NCBI GenBank assembly: GCA_049617695.1
Contig: JBMZJT010000004.1
Span: 1-57,249, forward strand
Reading direction: 5' to 3'
From: Thermoplasmatota archaeon
Lineage (GTDB): Archaea > Thermoplasmatota > E2 > JACPAO01 > JAHFTW01
DNA length: 57,249 bases
Part shown: positions 3,337 through 36,874 of the stretch, piece after piece
Layout of the letters: every line of letters begins with the position of its first letter
Position numbering within the stretch: position 1 is the first letter of the stretch
The notes under the pieces: model-generated
The model's input: the letters and a program-made list of their open reading frames with translations, nothing else
What the model was told of the DNA's origin: nothing
The model's database searches: none
Made by a program: the position numbers and the translations under genes

Positions 3337-4914
3337 TTATCCCTGGAATTGTGCGACCGCGTTGCCTTCTTCGATTTCATAGGCTTGACCATAGATTTGG
3401 AAGCTGACGAAGTCAGGGGCGACGGCGCTGGCAAAGGGCACGGCGACGGTGGCGTCAATGTCCGTGCCGGGGCCGGCGGCGACGACGTCGATGCCGTAAT
3501 CCATGGTGCGCTCGGTTTGCAGCACGAAATCGAAGTAGGGGCCGCTGCAGTTGGGGGACAAGTGCCGGTGTAGGGTGTCTGGGTCGAAGCAGAGGCGGCC
3601 ATCTTGGCTGGTTTCGTCCAGAATCTGCTTCTCGAATTGGATGTCTGGCTCGCCGCTGCTTTCCGGGTAGCTGTACTGGACACTCAGCGCCGTGCTCCAC
3701 CCTTCCGGCTCGGGACTGGGCACTTCGCGCAGGGGCAAGTATTCGGGCAAGGCGATTGCGAAGCTGGTCATGGCCGTGAGGAGGCCGTGGGGCAGGCCAT
3801 CGCGGTCGTCCCCCCACATGCCATCCATGGGACTTACATCGACGGGCATCCAGGGGCTTGGGTTGCCGGGGTGATCGCCGACGTACACTTCTGCCCATGC
3901 GTGGAATCCATTCACCTCTCCAGCCAAGTAGCCACTGACGAGGCGCGCCGGAACGCCCGCGGCGCGCAGGAGACTCACGTAGGCGCCAGCTAGGTCACGG
4001 CAAACGCCGCCGCCTTGGGCAATCGTGTCTTCCGGCTCCAGCAAGTCGTCGGCGCTGAGCCGGGCTTCATCGTATTCGAGGGAATCGAACATCCAGCGGT
4101 ACAGGTTCCAGGCAATGTCCATGGTCGAGTCGCCCGGCTGGACGACGTCATCGACGACTTCCTGGACGGCCGGGTGATCCGGCGTGACACCAAACCCAGC
4201 GCCAAGCCATCCAGGTGCTTGGGCTGCGGCTTGGCTTGGCTGCAAGTAGGCATCCATGTCCTTCAGGTCCCAAACGCGTGCACTGTTGGTGTACGTGGCG
4301 ACGACCCCGAAATCCCATTGTCCCTCCGGCAAGAACGCGCCGTCGCCGCTGCGCGCTTGCACGGTATAGGTCCGTTCGTTGCCTGCGGGATCGGTCACGA
4401 CGACGAGCAGGCTCGTGATGCCATCGTCGACGGAAACCGTCGCCGGAAGTCCTTGGGCGACCACGTTGCCACCTTGCAAAATCACGACGTCATCGCCGGG
4501 GGCGACCACGGCATCGGCGCCGACGGTGTAGCTGCCGCCAACGGCGTCGCCGGAACGAGCCAACCCTTCAATCGTAGGCGGCGTGCTGTCAAACCGGACG
4601 CCCTTGAAGCTCTCCCATGGATGATTGGCGACGGTGTAGGCAATGTCCCACGTGCCATCCGGCAGCATGGCCTCAATGGCGTTCTGGGAATCACTGACGC
4701 CGTCCCAGACGAGTTCTTCCCCGCCAGATCTGGCCGTGATCACGACCATCTGCGGCACCACGTCGTCGACGAGCACCACGAAGCGAGGGTCCGTGTTCCA
4801 GCCATCGACATCCAGAGGCGTCCGCTGGACGGGAATGTCTGGGCGGGTCCATTCATCCCAGAATCCGAGGCAGCCACTCAATGACGTCAGCACCAGAAGC
4901 AGGGCAACACGCAC
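3337..4914 (-). CDS. transglutaminase-like (cysteine protease fold) lipoprotein
   Basis: Lipobox LTSLSGC. Core GGGVCRDLAGAYVSLLRAAGVPARLVSGYLAGEVNGFHAWAEVYVGD matches the Cys-His-Asp transglutaminase core. Confidence 0.85.
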   Translation of the reverse strand: MRVALLLVLTSLSGCLGFWDEWTRPDIPVQRTPLDVDGWNTDPRFVVLVDDVVPQMVVITARSGGEELVWDGVSDSQNAIEAMLPDGTWDIAYTVANHPWESFKGVRFDSTPPTIEGLARSGDAVGGSYTVGADAVVAPGDDVVILQGGNVVAQGLPATVSVDDGITSLLVVVTDPAGNERTYTVQARSGDGAFLPEGQWDFGVVATYTNSARVWDLKDMDAYLQPSQAAAQAPGWLGAGFGVTPDHPAVQEVVDDVVQPGDSTMDIAWNLYRWMFDSLEYDEARLSADDLLEPEDTIAQGGGVCRDLAGAYVSLLRAAGVPARLVSGYLAGEVNGFHAWAEVYVGDHPGNPSPWMPVDVSPMDGMWGDDRDGLPHGLLTAMTSFAIALPEYLPLREVPSPEPEGWSTALSVQYSYPESSGEPDIQFEKQILDETSQDGRLCFDPDTLHRHLSPNCSGPYFDFVLQTERTMDYGIDVVAAGPGTDIDATVAVPFASAVAPDFVSFQIYGQAYEIEEGNAVAQFQG

Positions 4915-7164: not shown

Positions 7165-7527
7165 TCAAGGGTTCTTCGACGGCCACAGCCAGAGCACGGC
7201 CGCCATGGCGAGGATGGCTGCCGGTGCCCAGGCAATCGATGTGCGGGGCTCGGGCGGAGGCTCGTAGCGCGCCGTCCAGGCCTCCACGTAGGTGACGCCA
7301 GGGCCAGCGGGCTCCGGCCTCGCCAGGACTTGCCATTCCTGGTCGTCGGGGCCGATTGCCCAGAGTTCGTGATGGCCTGCCTCCAGATCGACCAGGAGCG
7401 GTGCCGTGCCGTTGGATTGACCCAGCGTGTGCCCGTCTTGGATCCACGTCACCTCCGTGGTGCTGGCAAGGCGCATCGTGTCAGCATGCACGAGGATTGG
7501 AATCAAGAGGACCGCGGCCACCGTCAC
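7165..7527 (-). CDS. small membrane-anchored protein, hypothetical
   Basis: GTG 7527 overlaps the stop of the upstream gene (GTGA). N-terminal hydrophobic VTVAAVLLIPILVHA and C-terminal TM IAWAPAAILAMAAVLWLW. Confidence 0.5.
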   Translation of the reverse strand: MTVAAVLLIPILVHADTMRLASTTEVTWIQDGHTLGQSNGTAPLLVDLEAGHHELWAIGPDDQEWQVLARPEPAGPGVTYVEAWTARYEPPPEPRTSIAWAPAAILAMAAVLWLWPSKNP

Positions 7528-9560: not shown

Positions 9561-10585
9561 CGGTTCTCGAGTTCCTCGACGGCAGCCTTCGCGATTTCGG
9601 TGACACGAGGCACGCGCCCACGCAGGAAAATGTAGCTCCAGAAGCCGGCGCCTTTGAGACCGAGTGCGCCGCCGCTGGCGTTGACGTGGCCGCCGCCGTC
9701 GAAGCGCTTCGCGACGAGTTGACAGACGTCGGCGCCCTTGTTGCTTCGGAGGCTCATGAAGCCGTTGGGGCGGACATTGATGGCGACCTGGATGTTGTCT
9801 TGTTGCAGCAATTCATGGAGCCCGACATTGCGCGGCAGCCATCCGTAGACCACGGCGACTTGTTCGCCAGTGCTCGCCGTCCAGGTTCGGGTGTTCTTGA
9901 GGATCTTGGCGCCGGCGGCGTTGACCGTGCGTTGGTGGGCATCGCAGGCGGCCTGGATCACGGGGTCCACAACCTCTTCCTCTTCGGACTTGGGGACTTG
10001 GTGGTCGATGTATTCCTTCCAGCCCATCTCTTGAATTGCAAACTCCAGGATTTCGCCTTCGGGGGTCTCGTTGAGCCACAAGTCACGGTCGCGGTGGACC
10101 GCGGCGAGGCGCTTGGCGAAGTCGTCCTTGGGCAGCAGGGCTTGTTGTTGCATGCTGGCACCCGATTCCGTGTTGGGACTGATTTCCAGGGTGTGCACGG
10201 CGGCCTTGAGGGGCTTCAGGTCGACGCCTTCCCATTGCTTGTGATGATGGTCGCGCCAGTGGATTTCCCAGCCAGCGGAGCGCAGGCGGGCGCAGGCGGC
10301 GACGACGCCGTCGTAGTGATCGGGATTCAACGAGAGGTCGGTGATTTCCATGATGCGGCCGTTGACCGGGTACTTGCCGTAGAATTCCAGCACGCGCTTC
10401 ATGTCGCCGGGTTGGACGCCCACGATGCCGACGCCCTCGCCGTAGTGGCGCACCGTCATGATGGCGGAGCCGGCACCATCCAGGCAGCCGTTGTGCGTGA
10501 TTTGGAGGACCTTGCTGGCCGCTGCTTCGGCGCGTTCGAGTTTGGCTTCGAAGCGCTTCTGCTTGGCCTCCTTGGAGCGGAACAT
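9557..10585 (-). CDS. DHH/DHHA1-family phosphoesterase
   Basis: Motifs THNGCLDGAGSA, WRDHHHK and FDGGGHVNASG. Start ATG 10585; the rest of the 748-aa track ORF is antisense to cysS. ATGA overlap with endA. Confidence 0.8.
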   Translation of the reverse strand: MFRSKEAKQKRFEAKLERAEAAASKVLQITHNGCLDGAGSAIMTVRHYGEGVGIVGVQPGDMKRVLEFYGKYPVNGRIMEITDLSLNPDHYDGVVAACARLRSAGWEIHWRDHHHKQWEGVDLKPLKAAVHTLEISPNTESGASMQQQALLPKDDFAKRLAAVHRDRDLWLNETPEGEILEFAIQEMGWKEYIDHQVPKSEEEEVVDPVIQAACDAHQRTVNAAGAKILKNTRTWTASTGEQVAVVYGWLPRNVGLHELLQQDNIQVAINVRPNGFMSLRSNKGADVCQLVAKRFDGGGHVNASGGALGLKGAGFWSYIFLRGRVPRVTEIAKAAVEELENR

Positions 10586-10687
10586 GGAGCGCTTGGGCCA
10601 GTAGAGGTTCACAAGCGGTGGTGTCCGTCGGTCGATATGGGGGTTGCGGCCCGAACCGTTGAAAGGCTTCGGCCGCGTGGCGTCGCC

Positions 10688-12136
10688 GTGGCCCTGACGC
10701 TTTACAACGTCCGCACCCGCCAGAAGGAACCCTTCACGCCGCGCCAGCCTGGCAAGGTCGGCGTGTACCTGTGCGGCTTGACGGTGTACGATCACATGCA
10801 CATCGGCCACGCGCGCACGGCGGTCAGTTTCGAAGTGGTGCGCCGCTGGCTCGAGCACCACTACGACGAAGTCACCTTCAGTCAGAACGTGACGGACGTG
10901 GATGACAAGATCATTGCCCGGGCCCAGGAACTTGGCGTCAGCCCCTTGGAACACGCAGACACATGGGACAAGGAGTGCCAGAAACAGAGCGCCCGTCTCG
11001 GCGTGCGCGCCCCGGACATCGCGCCCCATGCGACGACCAGCATGGACGGCATCATCGCCTACATCGAAGGCATTCTCGAACGCGGATTCGCCTACGCCAC
11101 GGACGCCGGTAACGTCTACTTCGACGTGCCCAAGTACGACGCCTACGCCCAGGAGCACTTCCCCGAACAAGGCTACGGAAGTCTGAGCAACCGCGACTAC
11201 CGCGAAATGGCTGCAGGCACCCGGAAGGACGTCGAGTCGGACAAGCAACACCCCGCCGATTTCGCGTTGTGGAAAGCGGCAAAGGAGGACGAGCCAGCCG
11301 ACGCCCAATGGGACAGTCCGTGGGGCAAGGGACGCCCTGGTTGGCACATTGAATGCAGCCACATGTCCACGCACACCCTCGGCGCTGAGCAGATCGACAT
11401 CCACGGCGGCGGCCAGGACTTGATCTTCCCACACCACGAAAACGAGATCGCGCAAACGCAGGCCAAGACCGGCAAGGCGCCATTCGTCAATGTCTGGATG
11501 CACAGCGGCTTCCTCAACGTGGAGGGCGTCAAGATGAGCAAGAGCCTGGGCAATTTCATCACCCTCAAGGACGCACTCGACGACTTGGAAGACAAGGAAT
11601 GGGACCCCGAAGTCTTGCGATTCTACTTCGTCCAGACGCACTACCGCTCGAAGATTGACTTTAGCCGCAAAGGCCTGGATGAGGCCGCCACGGCCGTGGA
11701 ACGCCTGCGCAGGACCCGGGTGGCGCTCGCGCGCGCGACGGGCGAACCGAGCAGCGACGCGGGACTTGGCGAAGCGGCCGCGAAACTCATCGCCGATGCC
11801 CACGCGGCCCTAGACGATGACATCCACACGCCTGGCGCGGTTGCCGCGTTGTTCGATTTCACCAAGGCCGCCAACAAGGCGTTGGATGCGGGCGCCGGCG
11901 GCACCGACGCAAGTCAGGCGCTCGCGGCGTTCGAATCGGTTGCACGCCTGCTGACACTGTTCGACGACGTGATTGTCGAGGATGCTTTGCCCGATTTCGA
12001 GGCACTCCTGACCCAGCGTGAAGCAGCCCGCGCAGCCAAAGATTGGGGCACGGCAGATCGCATCCGTGACGAAATCCAAGCCGCAGGCTACCGCATTGAA
12101 GATACGCCCAACGGCGCAAGGGTTGTCAAGAGCTAG
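10688..12136 (+). CDS. cysS: cysteinyl-tRNA synthetase
   Basis: VALTLYNVRTRQKEPF aligns to the canonical CysRS N-terminus. HIGH motif HMHIGH and KMSKS motif present. GTG 10688 is preferred, with TTGAAAGG about 28 nt upstream; an in-frame ATG at 10637 is the alternative. Confidence 0.9.
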   Translation: MALTLYNVRTRQKEPFTPRQPGKVGVYLCGLTVYDHMHIGHARTAVSFEVVRRWLEHHYDEVTFSQNVTDVDDKIIARAQELGVSPLEHADTWDKECQKQSARLGVRAPDIAPHATTSMDGIIAYIEGILERGFAYATDAGNVYFDVPKYDAYAQEHFPEQGYGSLSNRDYREMAAGTRKDVESDKQHPADFALWKAAKEDEPADAQWDSPWGKGRPGWHIECSHMSTHTLGAEQIDIHGGGQDLIFPHHENEIAQTQAKTGKAPFVNVWMHSGFLNVEGVKMSKSLGNFITLKDALDDLEDKEWDPEVLRFYFVQTHYRSKIDFSRKGLDEAATAVERLRRTRVALARATGEPSSDAGLGEAAAKLIADAHAALDDDIHTPGAVAALFDFTKAANKALDAGAGGTDASQALAAFESVARLLTLFDDVIVEDALPDFEALLTQREAARAAKDWGTADRIRDEIQAAGYRIEDTPNGARVVKS

Positions 12137-34936: not shown

Positions 34937-35362
34937 TTAAGCCGTGTCGCGTGCGTCCCGTTCGGCCATGAGGCGCTCGGCCAGCCGCCGGGTGGCGTCG
35001 TCCATGGATCGCGGCAAGCGAAAGCCGTCCGTGTGGGGGCAATAGTCGGCATCCAGGGTGGCGCGGCGCAGGCCTTCATCCCAGACGGCGGGATAGAGAC
35101 GGCAACCAGCGGGTCGGTCCGCCCAGACACTGCATCGGCCTTCGACCAGGAACCAACAAGGCCGAGGCCCGTCGGCGTCGCGGCCCTGCAATTGCAGAAA
35201 TCCATCGTCGGCTTGGAACCAGAACGCCTCGCCAGGGCGGAGTCGTTGCAACCGGGCCAGGTCGGCTTCTGTGAGCAGCATCTCGATGTCGTGGCAGCAA
35301 TCGCTGCATCCGTGCTGTTCGCAGGGCGACCCTGCCACCGTCGGCAACGCGGGCAGGCTCAC
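34937..35362 (-). CDS. YkgJ-family (UPF0153) cysteine-cluster protein
   Basis: GTG 35362 overlaps the dcd stop (GTGA). CEQHGCSDCC and CWFLVEGRCSVWADRPAGCRLYP motifs. Confidence 0.72.
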   Translation of the reverse strand: MSLPALPTVAGSPCEQHGCSDCCHDIEMLLTEADLARLQRLRPGEAFWFQADDGFLQLQGRDADGPRPCWFLVEGRCSVWADRPAGCRLYPAVWDEGLRRATLDADYCPHTDGFRLPRSMDDATRRLAERLMAERDARDTA

Positions 35363-35841
35363 TTGGCCAGCGTGACGCCGGTTTGGCCCTGGTAGTTGCC
35401 CGATTTTTCGGCGTACGCCGCTTGAGGCGGCGATTTCAGGTCTTCCATGACGATCTGGCAGAACCGGTCGCCGATGGGAATCTCGATGGCTTCGTGGCTG
35501 GCGTTGAAGCAGCCGACGGTGAGGTTGCCATGGAAGCCGGCGTCGACCTTGCCAAAGGAGGCCAAGACGCCGCGGCGGGCGTAGCTGCTGCGAATCCAGA
35601 GACTGCCCACGGCGTCGACGGGCATTTCGAGGAACGCTTCCGTGCCTAGGACGAACCGTTCGCCTGGCGGGATCGTGACGGTGCCTTGGGTGATGGGTTC
35701 GGCGTCGCGGCCCAGGACTTGGACGTGGCTGAGGCGCAAGTCGAGGCCGTTGGGCGTCAAATCGTCCGGTCGCCAGGGCGTCGCTTTGAAGTGGCCGCCT
35801 TCGACGGCTGCCAAGAAGTCCGTGTCGCTCCAGATGCTCAT
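35359..35841 (-). CDS. dcd: dCTP deaminase / dUTPase-superfamily protein
   Basis: NGLDLRL, SSYARRGV, VDAGFHGNLT and RFCQIV motifs. Confidence 0.82.
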   Translation of the reverse strand: MSIWSDTDFLAAVEGGHFKATPWRPDDLTPNGLDLRLSHVQVLGRDAEPITQGTVTIPPGERFVLGTEAFLEMPVDAVGSLWIRSSYARRGVLASFGKVDAGFHGNLTVGCFNASHEAIEIPIGDRFCQIVMEDLKSPPQAAYAEKSGNYQGQTGVTLAK

Positions 35842-35971
35842 GGCGTTGCATCCAGGGCGGTCACTTCAAATGGGGGGTCGAAGTCGCGCGCCCTGAACCG
35901 GCCCCTTGATGCACTTCGTGCGCCAAGGTCCGCGCTTCGCGCTGCCTTCTGGCTTGCTTCGCAACCCACAA

Positions 35972-36044
35972 GGCCCCATGGGGTAGTTTGGTATCCTCTG
36001 GCGTTTGGGACGCTATGACTCCAGTTCAAATCTGGATGGGGCCA
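35972..36044 (+). tRNA. tRNA-Pro (anticodon TGG), CCA not encoded
   Basis: Hand fold: acceptor GGCCCCA/TGGGGCC, anticodon stem TGGCG/CGCTA with loop TTTGGGA, T-arm TCCAG-TTCAAAT-CTGGA, discriminator A. Confidence 0.9.
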
Positions 36045-36167
36045 CTTGTCGACCACGGATGATGCGTGGTCGAGCGAAGCGAGCGCCACGCTCCGAATGC
36101 AAACGTGGGCGTTTGCGTTCACATCTGAATGGGGCCACTTGTCGATCACGCACCGTGCGTGGTCGAG
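36024..36167 (+). repeat. 51-nt direct repeat: tRNA-Pro 3' part plus downstream hairpin (36024..36074) copied at 36117..36167
   Basis: gttcaaatctggatggggccacttgtcgaccacggatgatgcgtggtcgag vs gttcacatctgaatggggccacttgtcgatcacgcaccgtgcgtggtcgag (44/51). Hairpins at 36050..36072, 36099..36116 and 36143..36165. Confidence 0.9.
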
Positions 36168-36169
36168 TG

Positions 36170-36874
36170 CTAGAGATCCGTGACCCGGCCCAAGGACCAG
36201 GCCGGACGCTCCAGTTTCTCACCGGCGCGCACGGCCACGTCAAGTGGCGGCTCCAAGGCCAGGGGGCAATTCCAGTCCGGGCTGCGCGCGCAGCTCGGGT
36301 GGTATGCGAAATTCAGATCGAGCCGGAGTTTGCCATTGCTGGCGCCGAGCCAGGCGCCTTTGGGGCCGTCCAGCACGTAGCGGCCGCCACCGTAGGTTTC
36401 GTGTCCATTGGTGGCGTCCTTGAAGGCGACGAAGAGGCCGCCGCCGTACTGAATCATCCACATGGCGTAGATTTGGCCAATGGGTGTGTCCAGTACGGCT
36501 GCGGGGAAGACCTCGCCCCAGGGACCTTTGTGGCCGGTGAGCACGACGGTATCGGTCGGCTCGTCACGGCCTTCGAGGGGGGCCTGGGCGTCGAAGGGGA
36601 CCTCGTAGGCGAACTTGGGGTCGTAGTCCCAGTATTGCAGGCCTTGCCAGTCGTCCCGTTGGTCCACGGGAACGGGGCTTGCGTCGTGGGTGCGCCACAG
36701 TTCGTCGCGACGTTCCCGCCAGATGCGGTGGGCGTCGCGTGGGTCGCCTTCGTCGAGGCGGGCGCGGACATCGTGGTAGATGCGCGCCACGTCATTGCGG
36801 TAGTCGCTGAGGGCCAGAAGCTCGTTCACGGTCAGGAGGTGAGCACGCGGGGTGCCTCTTGGCCCTGCCGGCAT
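36170..36874 (-). CDS. DUF1684 domain protein
   Basis: GHETYGGGRYVLDG...LDLNFAYHPSCARSPDWNCPLALEPPLDVAVRAGEK matches the DUF1684 C-terminal signature. Confidence 0.82.
   Translation of the reverse strand: MPAGPRGTPRAHLLTVNELLALSDYRNDVARIYHDVRARLDEGDPRDAHRIWRERRDELWRTHDASPVPVDQRDDWQGLQYWDYDPKFAYEVPFDAQAPLEGRDEPTDTVVLTGHKGPWGEVFPAAVLDTPIGQIYAMWMIQYGGGLFVAFKDATNGHETYGGGRYVLDGPKGAWLGASNGKLRLDLNFAYHPSCARSPDWNCPLALEPPLDVAVRAGEKLERPAWSLGRVTDL

Follow-up and report, generated by a model that had tools for sequence, protein, structure and literature searches.

How a functional tRNA gene comes to be followed, a short distance downstream, by a second and displaced copy of its own 3' end is the question raised by a tRNA-Pro(UGG) locus of an uncultured Thermoplasmatota archaeon. 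The locus lies in a stretch of 57,249 nucleotides, which was analysed as a whole and is referred to here as the window. An earlier note on this DNA, made from the sequence alone, had brought up tRNA 3' ends as integration sites, had kept a simple local tandem duplication as the alternative and had suggested that a hairpin in the repeat is under selection. Considering the repeat, its flanking genes and the corresponding loci of relatives together, we find the duplication to be real and non-random, and it is best read as a small site-specific insertion scar at a tRNA hot spot.

Gene order and sequence support at the tRNA-Pro(UGG) locus

The functional tRNA-Pro(UGG) gene, one of three tRNA genes in the window, lies on the forward strand and spans 35972..36044 with the Rfam tRNA model (RF00005) and 35972-36045 in the ARAGORN call for tRNA-Pro(tgg). 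It has a G1-C72 pair and A73, and the CCA is not encoded. The whole-window Rfam scan at the gathering threshold missed this genuine tRNA because of its speed filters, and a local scan scored it at 52.1 bits against a cut-off of 29 bits. The left neighbour, used as a synteny anchor, is a dCTP deaminase (DCD) gene on the reverse strand (35359..35841; Logan gene call, PF22769/PF00692), whose product shares 79-88% amino-acid identity with its homologues in Thermoplasmatota MAGs. On the right lies a convergent DUF1684 gene (36170..36874, reverse strand, stop codon at 36170-36172; Pfam PF07920, 4.9e-25), the protein of which has an exact match on one Logan contig.

The open reading frames of the window are those of housekeeping genes, including aminoacyl-tRNA synthetases, transketolase, the A-type ATP synthase and malic enzyme. 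The cysteinyl-tRNA synthetase ORF (9686-12136) encodes 816 aa with the catalytic domain from residue 350 only; either its N-terminal stretch of about 340 residues is devoid of a Pfam match or its start codon has been over-extended. Homologues of the DUF1684 protein are 64-85% identical in a dozen uncultured relatives, the next-best matches lie at 51% and below, and the named homologues (44-48%) come mostly from Actinomycetota. The neighbourhoods of this gene differ in other members of the clade (Rhomboid, MFS), and horizontal acquisition and mobility of the DUF1684 block could have taken place. The segment from DUF1684 to YjbR was considered as an island and rejected, given that the sister species described below has the same block and no duplication.

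A displaced copy of the tRNA 3' end

A repeat search of the window returned the duplication described in the earlier note: a direct repeat of 51 nt with its units at 36024-36074 and 36117-36167, spaced 93 nt apart and identical at 44 of 51 positions (86%). Unit 1 comprises the last 21 nt of tRNA-Pro (nt 53-73) and a 30-nt trailer that contains CTTG followed by a palindrome, H1 (36049-36073). Unit 2, a displaced and non-functional copy on the same forward strand, repeats this order, with tRNA nt 53-73 at 36117-36137, CTTG and the palindrome H3 (36142-36166). The mismatches between the units fall at 36029, 36035, 36053, 36058, 36060, 36061 and 36062. Their shared 21-mer occurs in two exact copies in the 57-kb window, with 0.00 expected from 100 shuffles, and no third copy of the repeat above chance was found in the window. 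Candidates for a degenerate third copy bounding a larger island scored 31-32, against 29 or less in shuffles, and were rejected as chance; both lie inside housekeeping genes (CysRS and CDP-alcohol phosphatidyltransferase).

Each unit is present, with 100% identity, on one of two independent Logan contigs from run SRR27204715, which share a 24-nt overlap within the spacer; the duplication is therefore not an artefact of a single assembly. Both of these contigs end within the spacer hairpin. Contig ends at 0-112 nt from the tRNA-Pro 3' end were also seen in independent assemblies (our handles L083, L089/L257, L290, L276 and L082/L081), and breaks at this place may reflect strain heterogeneity or a hairpin-related loss of coverage.

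The hairpins of the earlier note are present and extend further than it had described. H1 and H3 are near-perfect 25-bp palindromes with 12-1-12 arms. The 42-nt spacer between the units (36075..36116, forward strand), resolved from the sequence and an inverted-repeat search, contains two hairpins, GAGCG-CCA-CGCTC at 36081-36093 and H2, GAATGCAAACG-TGGG-CGTTTGCGTTC, at 36095-36120, the latter with a stem of 11 bp that reaches 4 nt into unit 2. No source for the spacer was found in the window, among the collected tRNA-Pro loci or in public collections. As the host is a Thermoplasmatota archaeon, the logic of bacterial terminators is not applicable to these hairpins; among Rfam families, only tRNA gave a match.

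Four of the seven mismatches fall within the seven central positions of the palindrome (hypergeometric P=0.004, post hoc), which agrees with their earlier assignment to the hairpin loop, and the C-to-T change in the stem, at 36053, does face a G. The earlier note had seen in these changes the sign of a structure under selection. The clustering in the palindrome centre upholds part of that argument; the single compensatory pair is not significant by our own estimate. Selection on the hairpin is thus weakly supported, because palindrome arms can stay alike through DNA-level processes and because unit 2 has, in its tRNA part, acquired changes at positions under functional constraint. There, the invariant A58 has been lost (A58 to C), and a change of G64 to A gives a C50-A64 mismatch in the T-stem, which is perfect in unit 1.

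Unit 2 does abut the convergent gene, as had been noted, with a gap of 2 nt before the DUF1684 stop codon. The stretch 3' of it (36168-36209) codes for DUF1684 and shows no relation to the spacer, and the pattern is therefore A-B-A and not A-B-A-B. TRF reported nothing at a score of 30 or more, and there are no head-to-tail copies of the whole period, so the simple tandem duplication offered earlier as the alternative is not supported. A second tRNA or a tandem tRNA pseudogene was rejected as well: between 35800 and 36400 there is no second RF00005 match at E ≤ 10 and none by ARAGORN, and unit 2 itself is called as a tRNA by neither program, even at that permissive threshold.

An empty site in a sister species and similar duplications in relatives

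A protein search with DUF1684 identified a sister species (L243-L246), present in many assemblies, in which dCTP deaminase, tRNA-Pro and the convergent DUF1684 gene follow one another as in the window. The gene order is the same over more than 12 kb, and the DUF1684 and DCD proteins are 85% and 84% identical, respectively. Only 6 nt separate the end of its tRNA-Pro from the DUF1684 stop, the tRNA being followed by CTTTATC and then that stop. Given this empty site in a syntenic sister species, the 119 extra nt of the window constitute an insertion. In a second relative the trailer measures 55 nt and has a single, unrelated hairpin, and no duplicate is present. Relatives in the JGI metagenomes did not exceed 67%. 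Within the DCD gene, from position 7206, one ENA scaffold of the sister species (L245) loses all similarity to the others; either a rearrangement or a chimeric assembly is responsible, and the tRNA site is not involved.

Loci with tRNA-Pro(UGG) were gathered through the DCD neighbour and a pattern of the 5' half of the tRNA, which yielded about 48 loci, and each tRNA end was aligned against its own flanks and scored by local alignment. The 3' end gave scores of 37-46 against the downstream sequence in 4/46 non-redundant loci (the window, L253, L258 and L096). Control comparisons reached 20 at most and the remaining loci 21 at most, except for two that owe a score of 24 to a neighbouring tRNA. 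L289 was added later as a fifth case. The tRNA-Pro genes of these relatives are followed by a copy of their own 3' end at 409-486 (L253), 2774-2872 (L289), 3766-3875 (L096) and 7277-7393 (L258). The earlier suggestion of an integration site is strengthened accordingly: relatives vary at this position, the sister species is empty and four relatives have independent 3'-end copies.

The five cases share a common layout, in which the copy matches the cognate tRNA and lies 78-116 nt downstream, with GC-rich hairpins in between. The copies, 17-51 nt long, begin 15-21 nt before the tRNA end, at positions 53, 53, 59, 56 and 57, all in the T-loop (G53/T54 in the window), and they extend beyond the tRNA by 0-5 nt in the four relatives and by 30 nt in the window. 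In L253, L289 and L258 they show no difference from the cognate 3' end from the T-stem on. Rfam found no second tRNA-like signal at E ≤ 1 in L253 or L289. At distances of 130-4000 nt, copies of the tRNA 3' end are lacking from all loci with the exception of L260 at +724, where a match with 3 mismatches is presumed to be another tRNA; the two other tRNAs of the window show no such duplication. L088/L277 was considered as a sixth case and set aside as a mere possibility, its degenerate copy scoring 17, not above controls.

The order of events can be read from the flanks. After unit 2, L253 continues with CTGTCGA..., which on visual comparison of the first ~7-12 nt is similar both to the window trailer and to the only trailer of L085; what follows its unit 1 is new sequence. 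Unit 2, the downstream copy, is therefore the one that keeps the native flank, and the upstream copy and the hairpin DNA arrived together. The spacers of L096 and L258 contain an inverted copy of the tRNA 3' end, 13 nt long in the L096 filler, and the downstream copy consequently lies in a long stem.

Other irregularities were met among the collected loci. In L284 (DCD 91%) and L285 (DCD 89%), the closest relatives by DCD, a protein-coding gene and not tRNA-Pro lies upstream of DCD, so that these loci offered no comparison and the adjacency of tRNA-Pro and DCD is unstable even in near relatives. An ARAGORN 'tmRNA' call in L086 (3820-4183), which overlaps an archaeal tRNA-Pro and the start of DCD, is almost certainly a false positive.

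Extra DNA on the 5' side of the gene

Upstream of the gene, on the forward strand, lies a promoter-like module (35864..35887) made up of CTTCAAATG (35864-35872) and AGTCGC (35882-35887). The same architecture, box-N9-AGTCGC-N9-14-tRNA, occurs in L083, L289, L243, L094, L096, L092 and others, from which we infer that the module is a promoter. In the window the tRNA starts 84 nt after the last base of the module (35887), versus 9-14 nt in relatives. At the position where the tRNA starts in the sister species, 12 nt after AGTCGC, the window has the segment 35900..35916 (GGCCCCTTGATGCACTT against GGCCCCATGGGGTAGTT, 12/17 bases, forward strand), which is tentatively regarded, from its sequence, as the probable relic of an older tRNA-Pro 5' end. 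A match of 12/17 to the tRNA 5' end is reached at 1.8e-4 of window positions; free local alignment did not detect the segment. It is followed by a 55-nt leader insert (35917..35971, forward strand) that is absent from the sister species in the alignment. Three mini-hairpins with TTC loops occur at 35911-35921, 35932-35942 and 35954-35964. If the promoter reading is right, the pre-tRNA would carry a structured leader of 72 nt. An 11-nt inverted repeat flanking the tRNA (35952-35962 / 36074-36084) was rejected, about 0.4 such pairs being expected by chance in a region of this extent according to our own estimate.

Two relatives also have additional DNA on this side. About 60 extra nt separate the box-AGTCGC module from the tRNA in L253, and L098 (3570-3821) has, 189 nt upstream, a second copy of a 61-nt segment that consists of the upstream/promoter region and tRNA-Pro nt 1-24; by eye the copies differ at two positions, and four GC-rich hairpins separate them. 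The functional tRNA-Pro of the window thus seems, on present comparison, to be nested between relics of older ends. Across the five 3' and three 5' events, eight in six loci, the inserts measure about 55-130 nt and none is kilobase-sized.

The duplication as a proposed att-like insertion scar

The explanation that we favour, at a little less than an even chance, is that the 3' duplication is the attL/attR-like scar of a site-specific insertion into tRNA-Pro. The 93 nt at 36024-36116 would have entered the resident gene in the part that extends from the T-loop to the 3' end. The incoming DNA would have supplied a replacement for tRNA nt 53-73 with its trailer (unit 1) and the 42 nt of hairpin DNA, and the original 3' end with its trailer (unit 2) would have been displaced downstream to the DUF1684 stop, to decay there outside any tRNA. 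The proposed reaction, of which this geometry is the known outcome, is recombination of the tyrosine-integrase type between a chromosomal attB and an attP mimicking the tRNA 3' end, in which case unit 1 would correspond to attL and unit 2 to attR. What remains would be a scar devoid of genes, probably formed by the two arm stubs of an element that has lost its interior. The repeat, the empty site, the decay of unit 2 and the recurrence of T-loop-bounded duplications in relatives are observed; from them we infer the action of a recombinase at the junctions and the former presence of a larger element.

Several properties of the locus are those of an att pair, namely a direct repeat that includes an intact tRNA 3' part, its extent from the T-loop start to the 3' end, and the empty site. 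The T-loop is reportedly among the usual crossover sites of integrases. The att sites of crenarchaea measure 29-69 bp, a range that includes the 51 nt of the window repeat, and recombination is typically 3'-distal, 5'-distal integration being rarer (PMC6563490). Partial tRNA genes left behind by integration are pervasive in archaea (PMC9897764). The mirror-image 5' duplication of L098, together with the probable 5' relic of the window, also suggests integration.

A Pfam search of the 37 larger ORFs of the window found no integrase, transposase or Cas1 domains; very divergent integrases could escape such a search. No contig with the repeat plus trailer or with the spacer was found in genome, metagenome and viral contigs, phages or plasmids, and exact scans with the repeat core, the tRNA 3' end, the spacer hairpin and hypothetical attP junctions produced no relevant contig matches, the three viral matches to CAAATCCGGGCGGGCCCAC being tRNA-Met genes of AT-rich phages. 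A matching attP was found neither in viral, genome and metagenome contigs (exact matches only) nor in phages and plasmids (BLAST, mismatches allowed); since the contig scans were limited to exact matches, this absence is weak evidence.

The BLAST search of phages and plasmids returned a single 25-nt coliphage match besides weaker ones at chance level. It is an exact match of 36021-36045, the T-arm and acceptor 3' strand of tRNA-Pro, to an unannotated stretch of the T4-like Escherichia phage vB_EcoM_RZ (79052-79076), and probably represents a phage tRNA that shares the same 3' end. The earlier note had proposed that integration would be refuted if no related genome varied at this site and the trailer was on no mobile element. 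The second part agrees with our searches, which found no element with the trailer; the first does not, as relatives do vary.

Other observations count against an att scar. Only 42 nt lie between the repeats, which bears out the earlier remark that nothing element-sized separates them. Uniformly small inserts are odd for the random decay of kilobase elements, and copies identical from the T-stem, as in three relatives, would follow automatically from the copying of host sequence. Moreover, short direct repeats around hairpins should delete easily, and their persistence needs explaining. Considering the eight small events and the lack of an integrase, element-sized DNA or attP, we speak of an att-like scar and not of an integrated element. 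The small and similar sizes might be accounted for if arm stubs were kept for the 3'-end structures that they provide to the tRNA and the convergent gene, if site pairs became trapped once too close to recombine, or if the inserts were truly a miniature class.

Alternative explanations

The last of these options would make the insert complete: a member of a gene-less, hairpin-rich family of miniature inserts (about 55-130 bp) that enter tRNA-Pro at its ends through a site-specific process provided in trans and rebuild the gene end on each occasion. We regard this as unlikely, and hold the same doubt about its extended form, in which undescribed miniature inserts enter either end of tRNA-Pro, always regenerate that end, leave nested relics and hitch-hike on a tRNA-Pro-specific recombinase. 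The uniformly small size of the eight events in six loci speaks for such a family, as does the occurrence of inserts on both sides of the tRNA in the window and in L253. These two loci also have in common the T-loop change TTCACA and a hairpin abutting unit 2, GCAAACG-TGGG-CGTTTGC in the window and GCAACG-AGCC-CGTTGC in L253, which differ by a paired indel; CCTCCGC lies just upstream of the copy in L258, L289 and L088. However, the similarity of the spacers is not significant when taken alone (P=0.06 for the window and L253, P=0.04 for L096 and L258, P>0.29 across these groups), no second copy of any insert was found elsewhere, and terminal inverted repeats or shared end motifs are absent. Circles of about 100 bp would, in addition, be physically hard to recombine.

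An error of replication or repair at a heavily transcribed tRNA, in which the nascent strand leaves the template past the gene end, acquires filler by folding back and re-enters at the T-loop, is likewise improbable in our judgement. It would readily produce the copies of L253, L289 and L258, identical to the cognate 3' end from the T-stem, and the fillers, which are almost all hairpin (fold z-scores of -4.8 in the window, -6.7 in L258 and -3.8 in L253); the 13-nt inverted copy in the L096 filler would also be accounted for. If such switches were random, though, entry points clustered at 53-59 and exit points at 0-5 nt in the four other cases (+30 in the window) would not be expected. Apart from L096, the fillers have no templated origin in the flanks, and the two other tRNAs of the window escaped duplication.

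A function of the trailer itself, as a selected RNA or DNA structure, seems to us rather more doubtful; the candidates are a bidirectional 3'-end or termination signal or an insulator lying between the convergent tRNA and DUF1684 genes, and a protein-binding palindrome. The region folds far better than shuffled sequence on both strands (z = -4.8 and -4.1), the unit mismatches avoid the palindrome arms (P=0.004), and the window is without the T-run that follows tRNA-Pro in most relatives. By inspection, the three imperfect stem pairs of the window and L253 are G-T on the tRNA strand and would be A-C on the opposite one, but three wobble pairs give P=0.125 only. Moreover, the nearest relative with shared synteny and most of the clade lack the module, hairpin sequence is not maintained from one case to another, and changes have accumulated in the tRNA portion of unit 2. 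Hairpins occur in all cases, with sequences too divergent and too few for covariation.

A target-site duplication of the casposon or Cas1 type, from integration or excision at a target like the tRNA-Pro of Aciduliprofundum boonei, was rejected as very improbable. The organism belongs to the same phylum-level group and the tRNA is the same, but the geometry does not fit: the copies of 17-51 nt start 15-21 nt before the tRNA end, whereas the known duplication is always 15 bp long and shares 5 bp with the tRNA; terminal inverted repeats are absent, and neither Cas1 nor PolB was found in the window. Least credible of all is an assembly artefact joining two strain variants, to which the halt of both Logan contigs inside the spacer hairpin might point, considering that each contig has the spacer and one unit at full identity with the overlap in a unique 24-mer, that the adjacency of DCD, tRNA and DUF1684 is confirmed in the sister species, and that the same layout occurs in five other loci from unrelated assemblies.

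Comparison with known systems

Read as an integration scar, the duplication has mainly annotation value, in that the stranded 21-nt fragment and the palindromes should not be taken for a gene or a regulatory element. It would also identify tRNA-Pro(UGG) as a hot spot of recombination in a lineage of uncultured archaea without characterised mobile elements. The regular spacing of 78-116 nt in the five clear T-loop-bounded cases, with hairpin DNA only between the copies, together with the mirror events on the 5' side, is not what random erosion of kilobase proviruses predicts, and this regularity could expose either a size limit that traps pairs of att sites or a very small class of insert.

The att-like scar resembles the attL/attR pairs left in archaea by tyrosine integrases of the SSV, pNOB8 and pTN3 types, in which a functional tRNA 3' end is likewise accompanied by a stranded partial copy downstream. 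The repeat runs from inside the tRNA to or past its 3' end, its length is within the reported range and a relative has the empty site. In contrast to these pairs, no integrase, element or attP was found here, and five to six lineages are involved with inserts of about 100 nt or less. Known tRNA-integrated cases enclose 9-23 kb or more, including the integrase (PMC9897764). In PYG1 of Pyrococcus yayanosii (tRNA-Gln), 44-bp repeats flank an island of 21.4 kb, whereas the copies in the window are 42 nt apart.

The casposon of A. boonei shares with the window the tRNA-Pro target in a related archaeal group, the T-loop within the target and a target duplicated around the insert, and differs in its terminal inverted repeats, Cas1 and PolB. 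Its duplication is a fixed 15 bp (14-15) overlapping the last 5 bp of tRNA-Pro (PMC5137440), and its casposase, which is able to insert short DNA, recognises the T-psi-C-loop segment of tRNA-Pro (PMC5137440, PMC9939771). In Caldiarchaeum subterraneum, a fragment of tRNA-Thr was stranded by a recombinase-bearing insertion of 1.8 kb (Sugahara et al. 2012, PMC3293823). As in the window, a partial tRNA copy stands beside an intact gene in a natural archaeal population and is attributed to mobile DNA; the Caldiarchaeum fragment is from the 5' end and lies 1.8 kb away with a recombinase in between, whereas the present inserts span 42-128 nt and are gene-less. The scar itself is therefore a variant of a well-known feature, and the curious part is the recurrence of hairpin-only inserts of about 100 nt.
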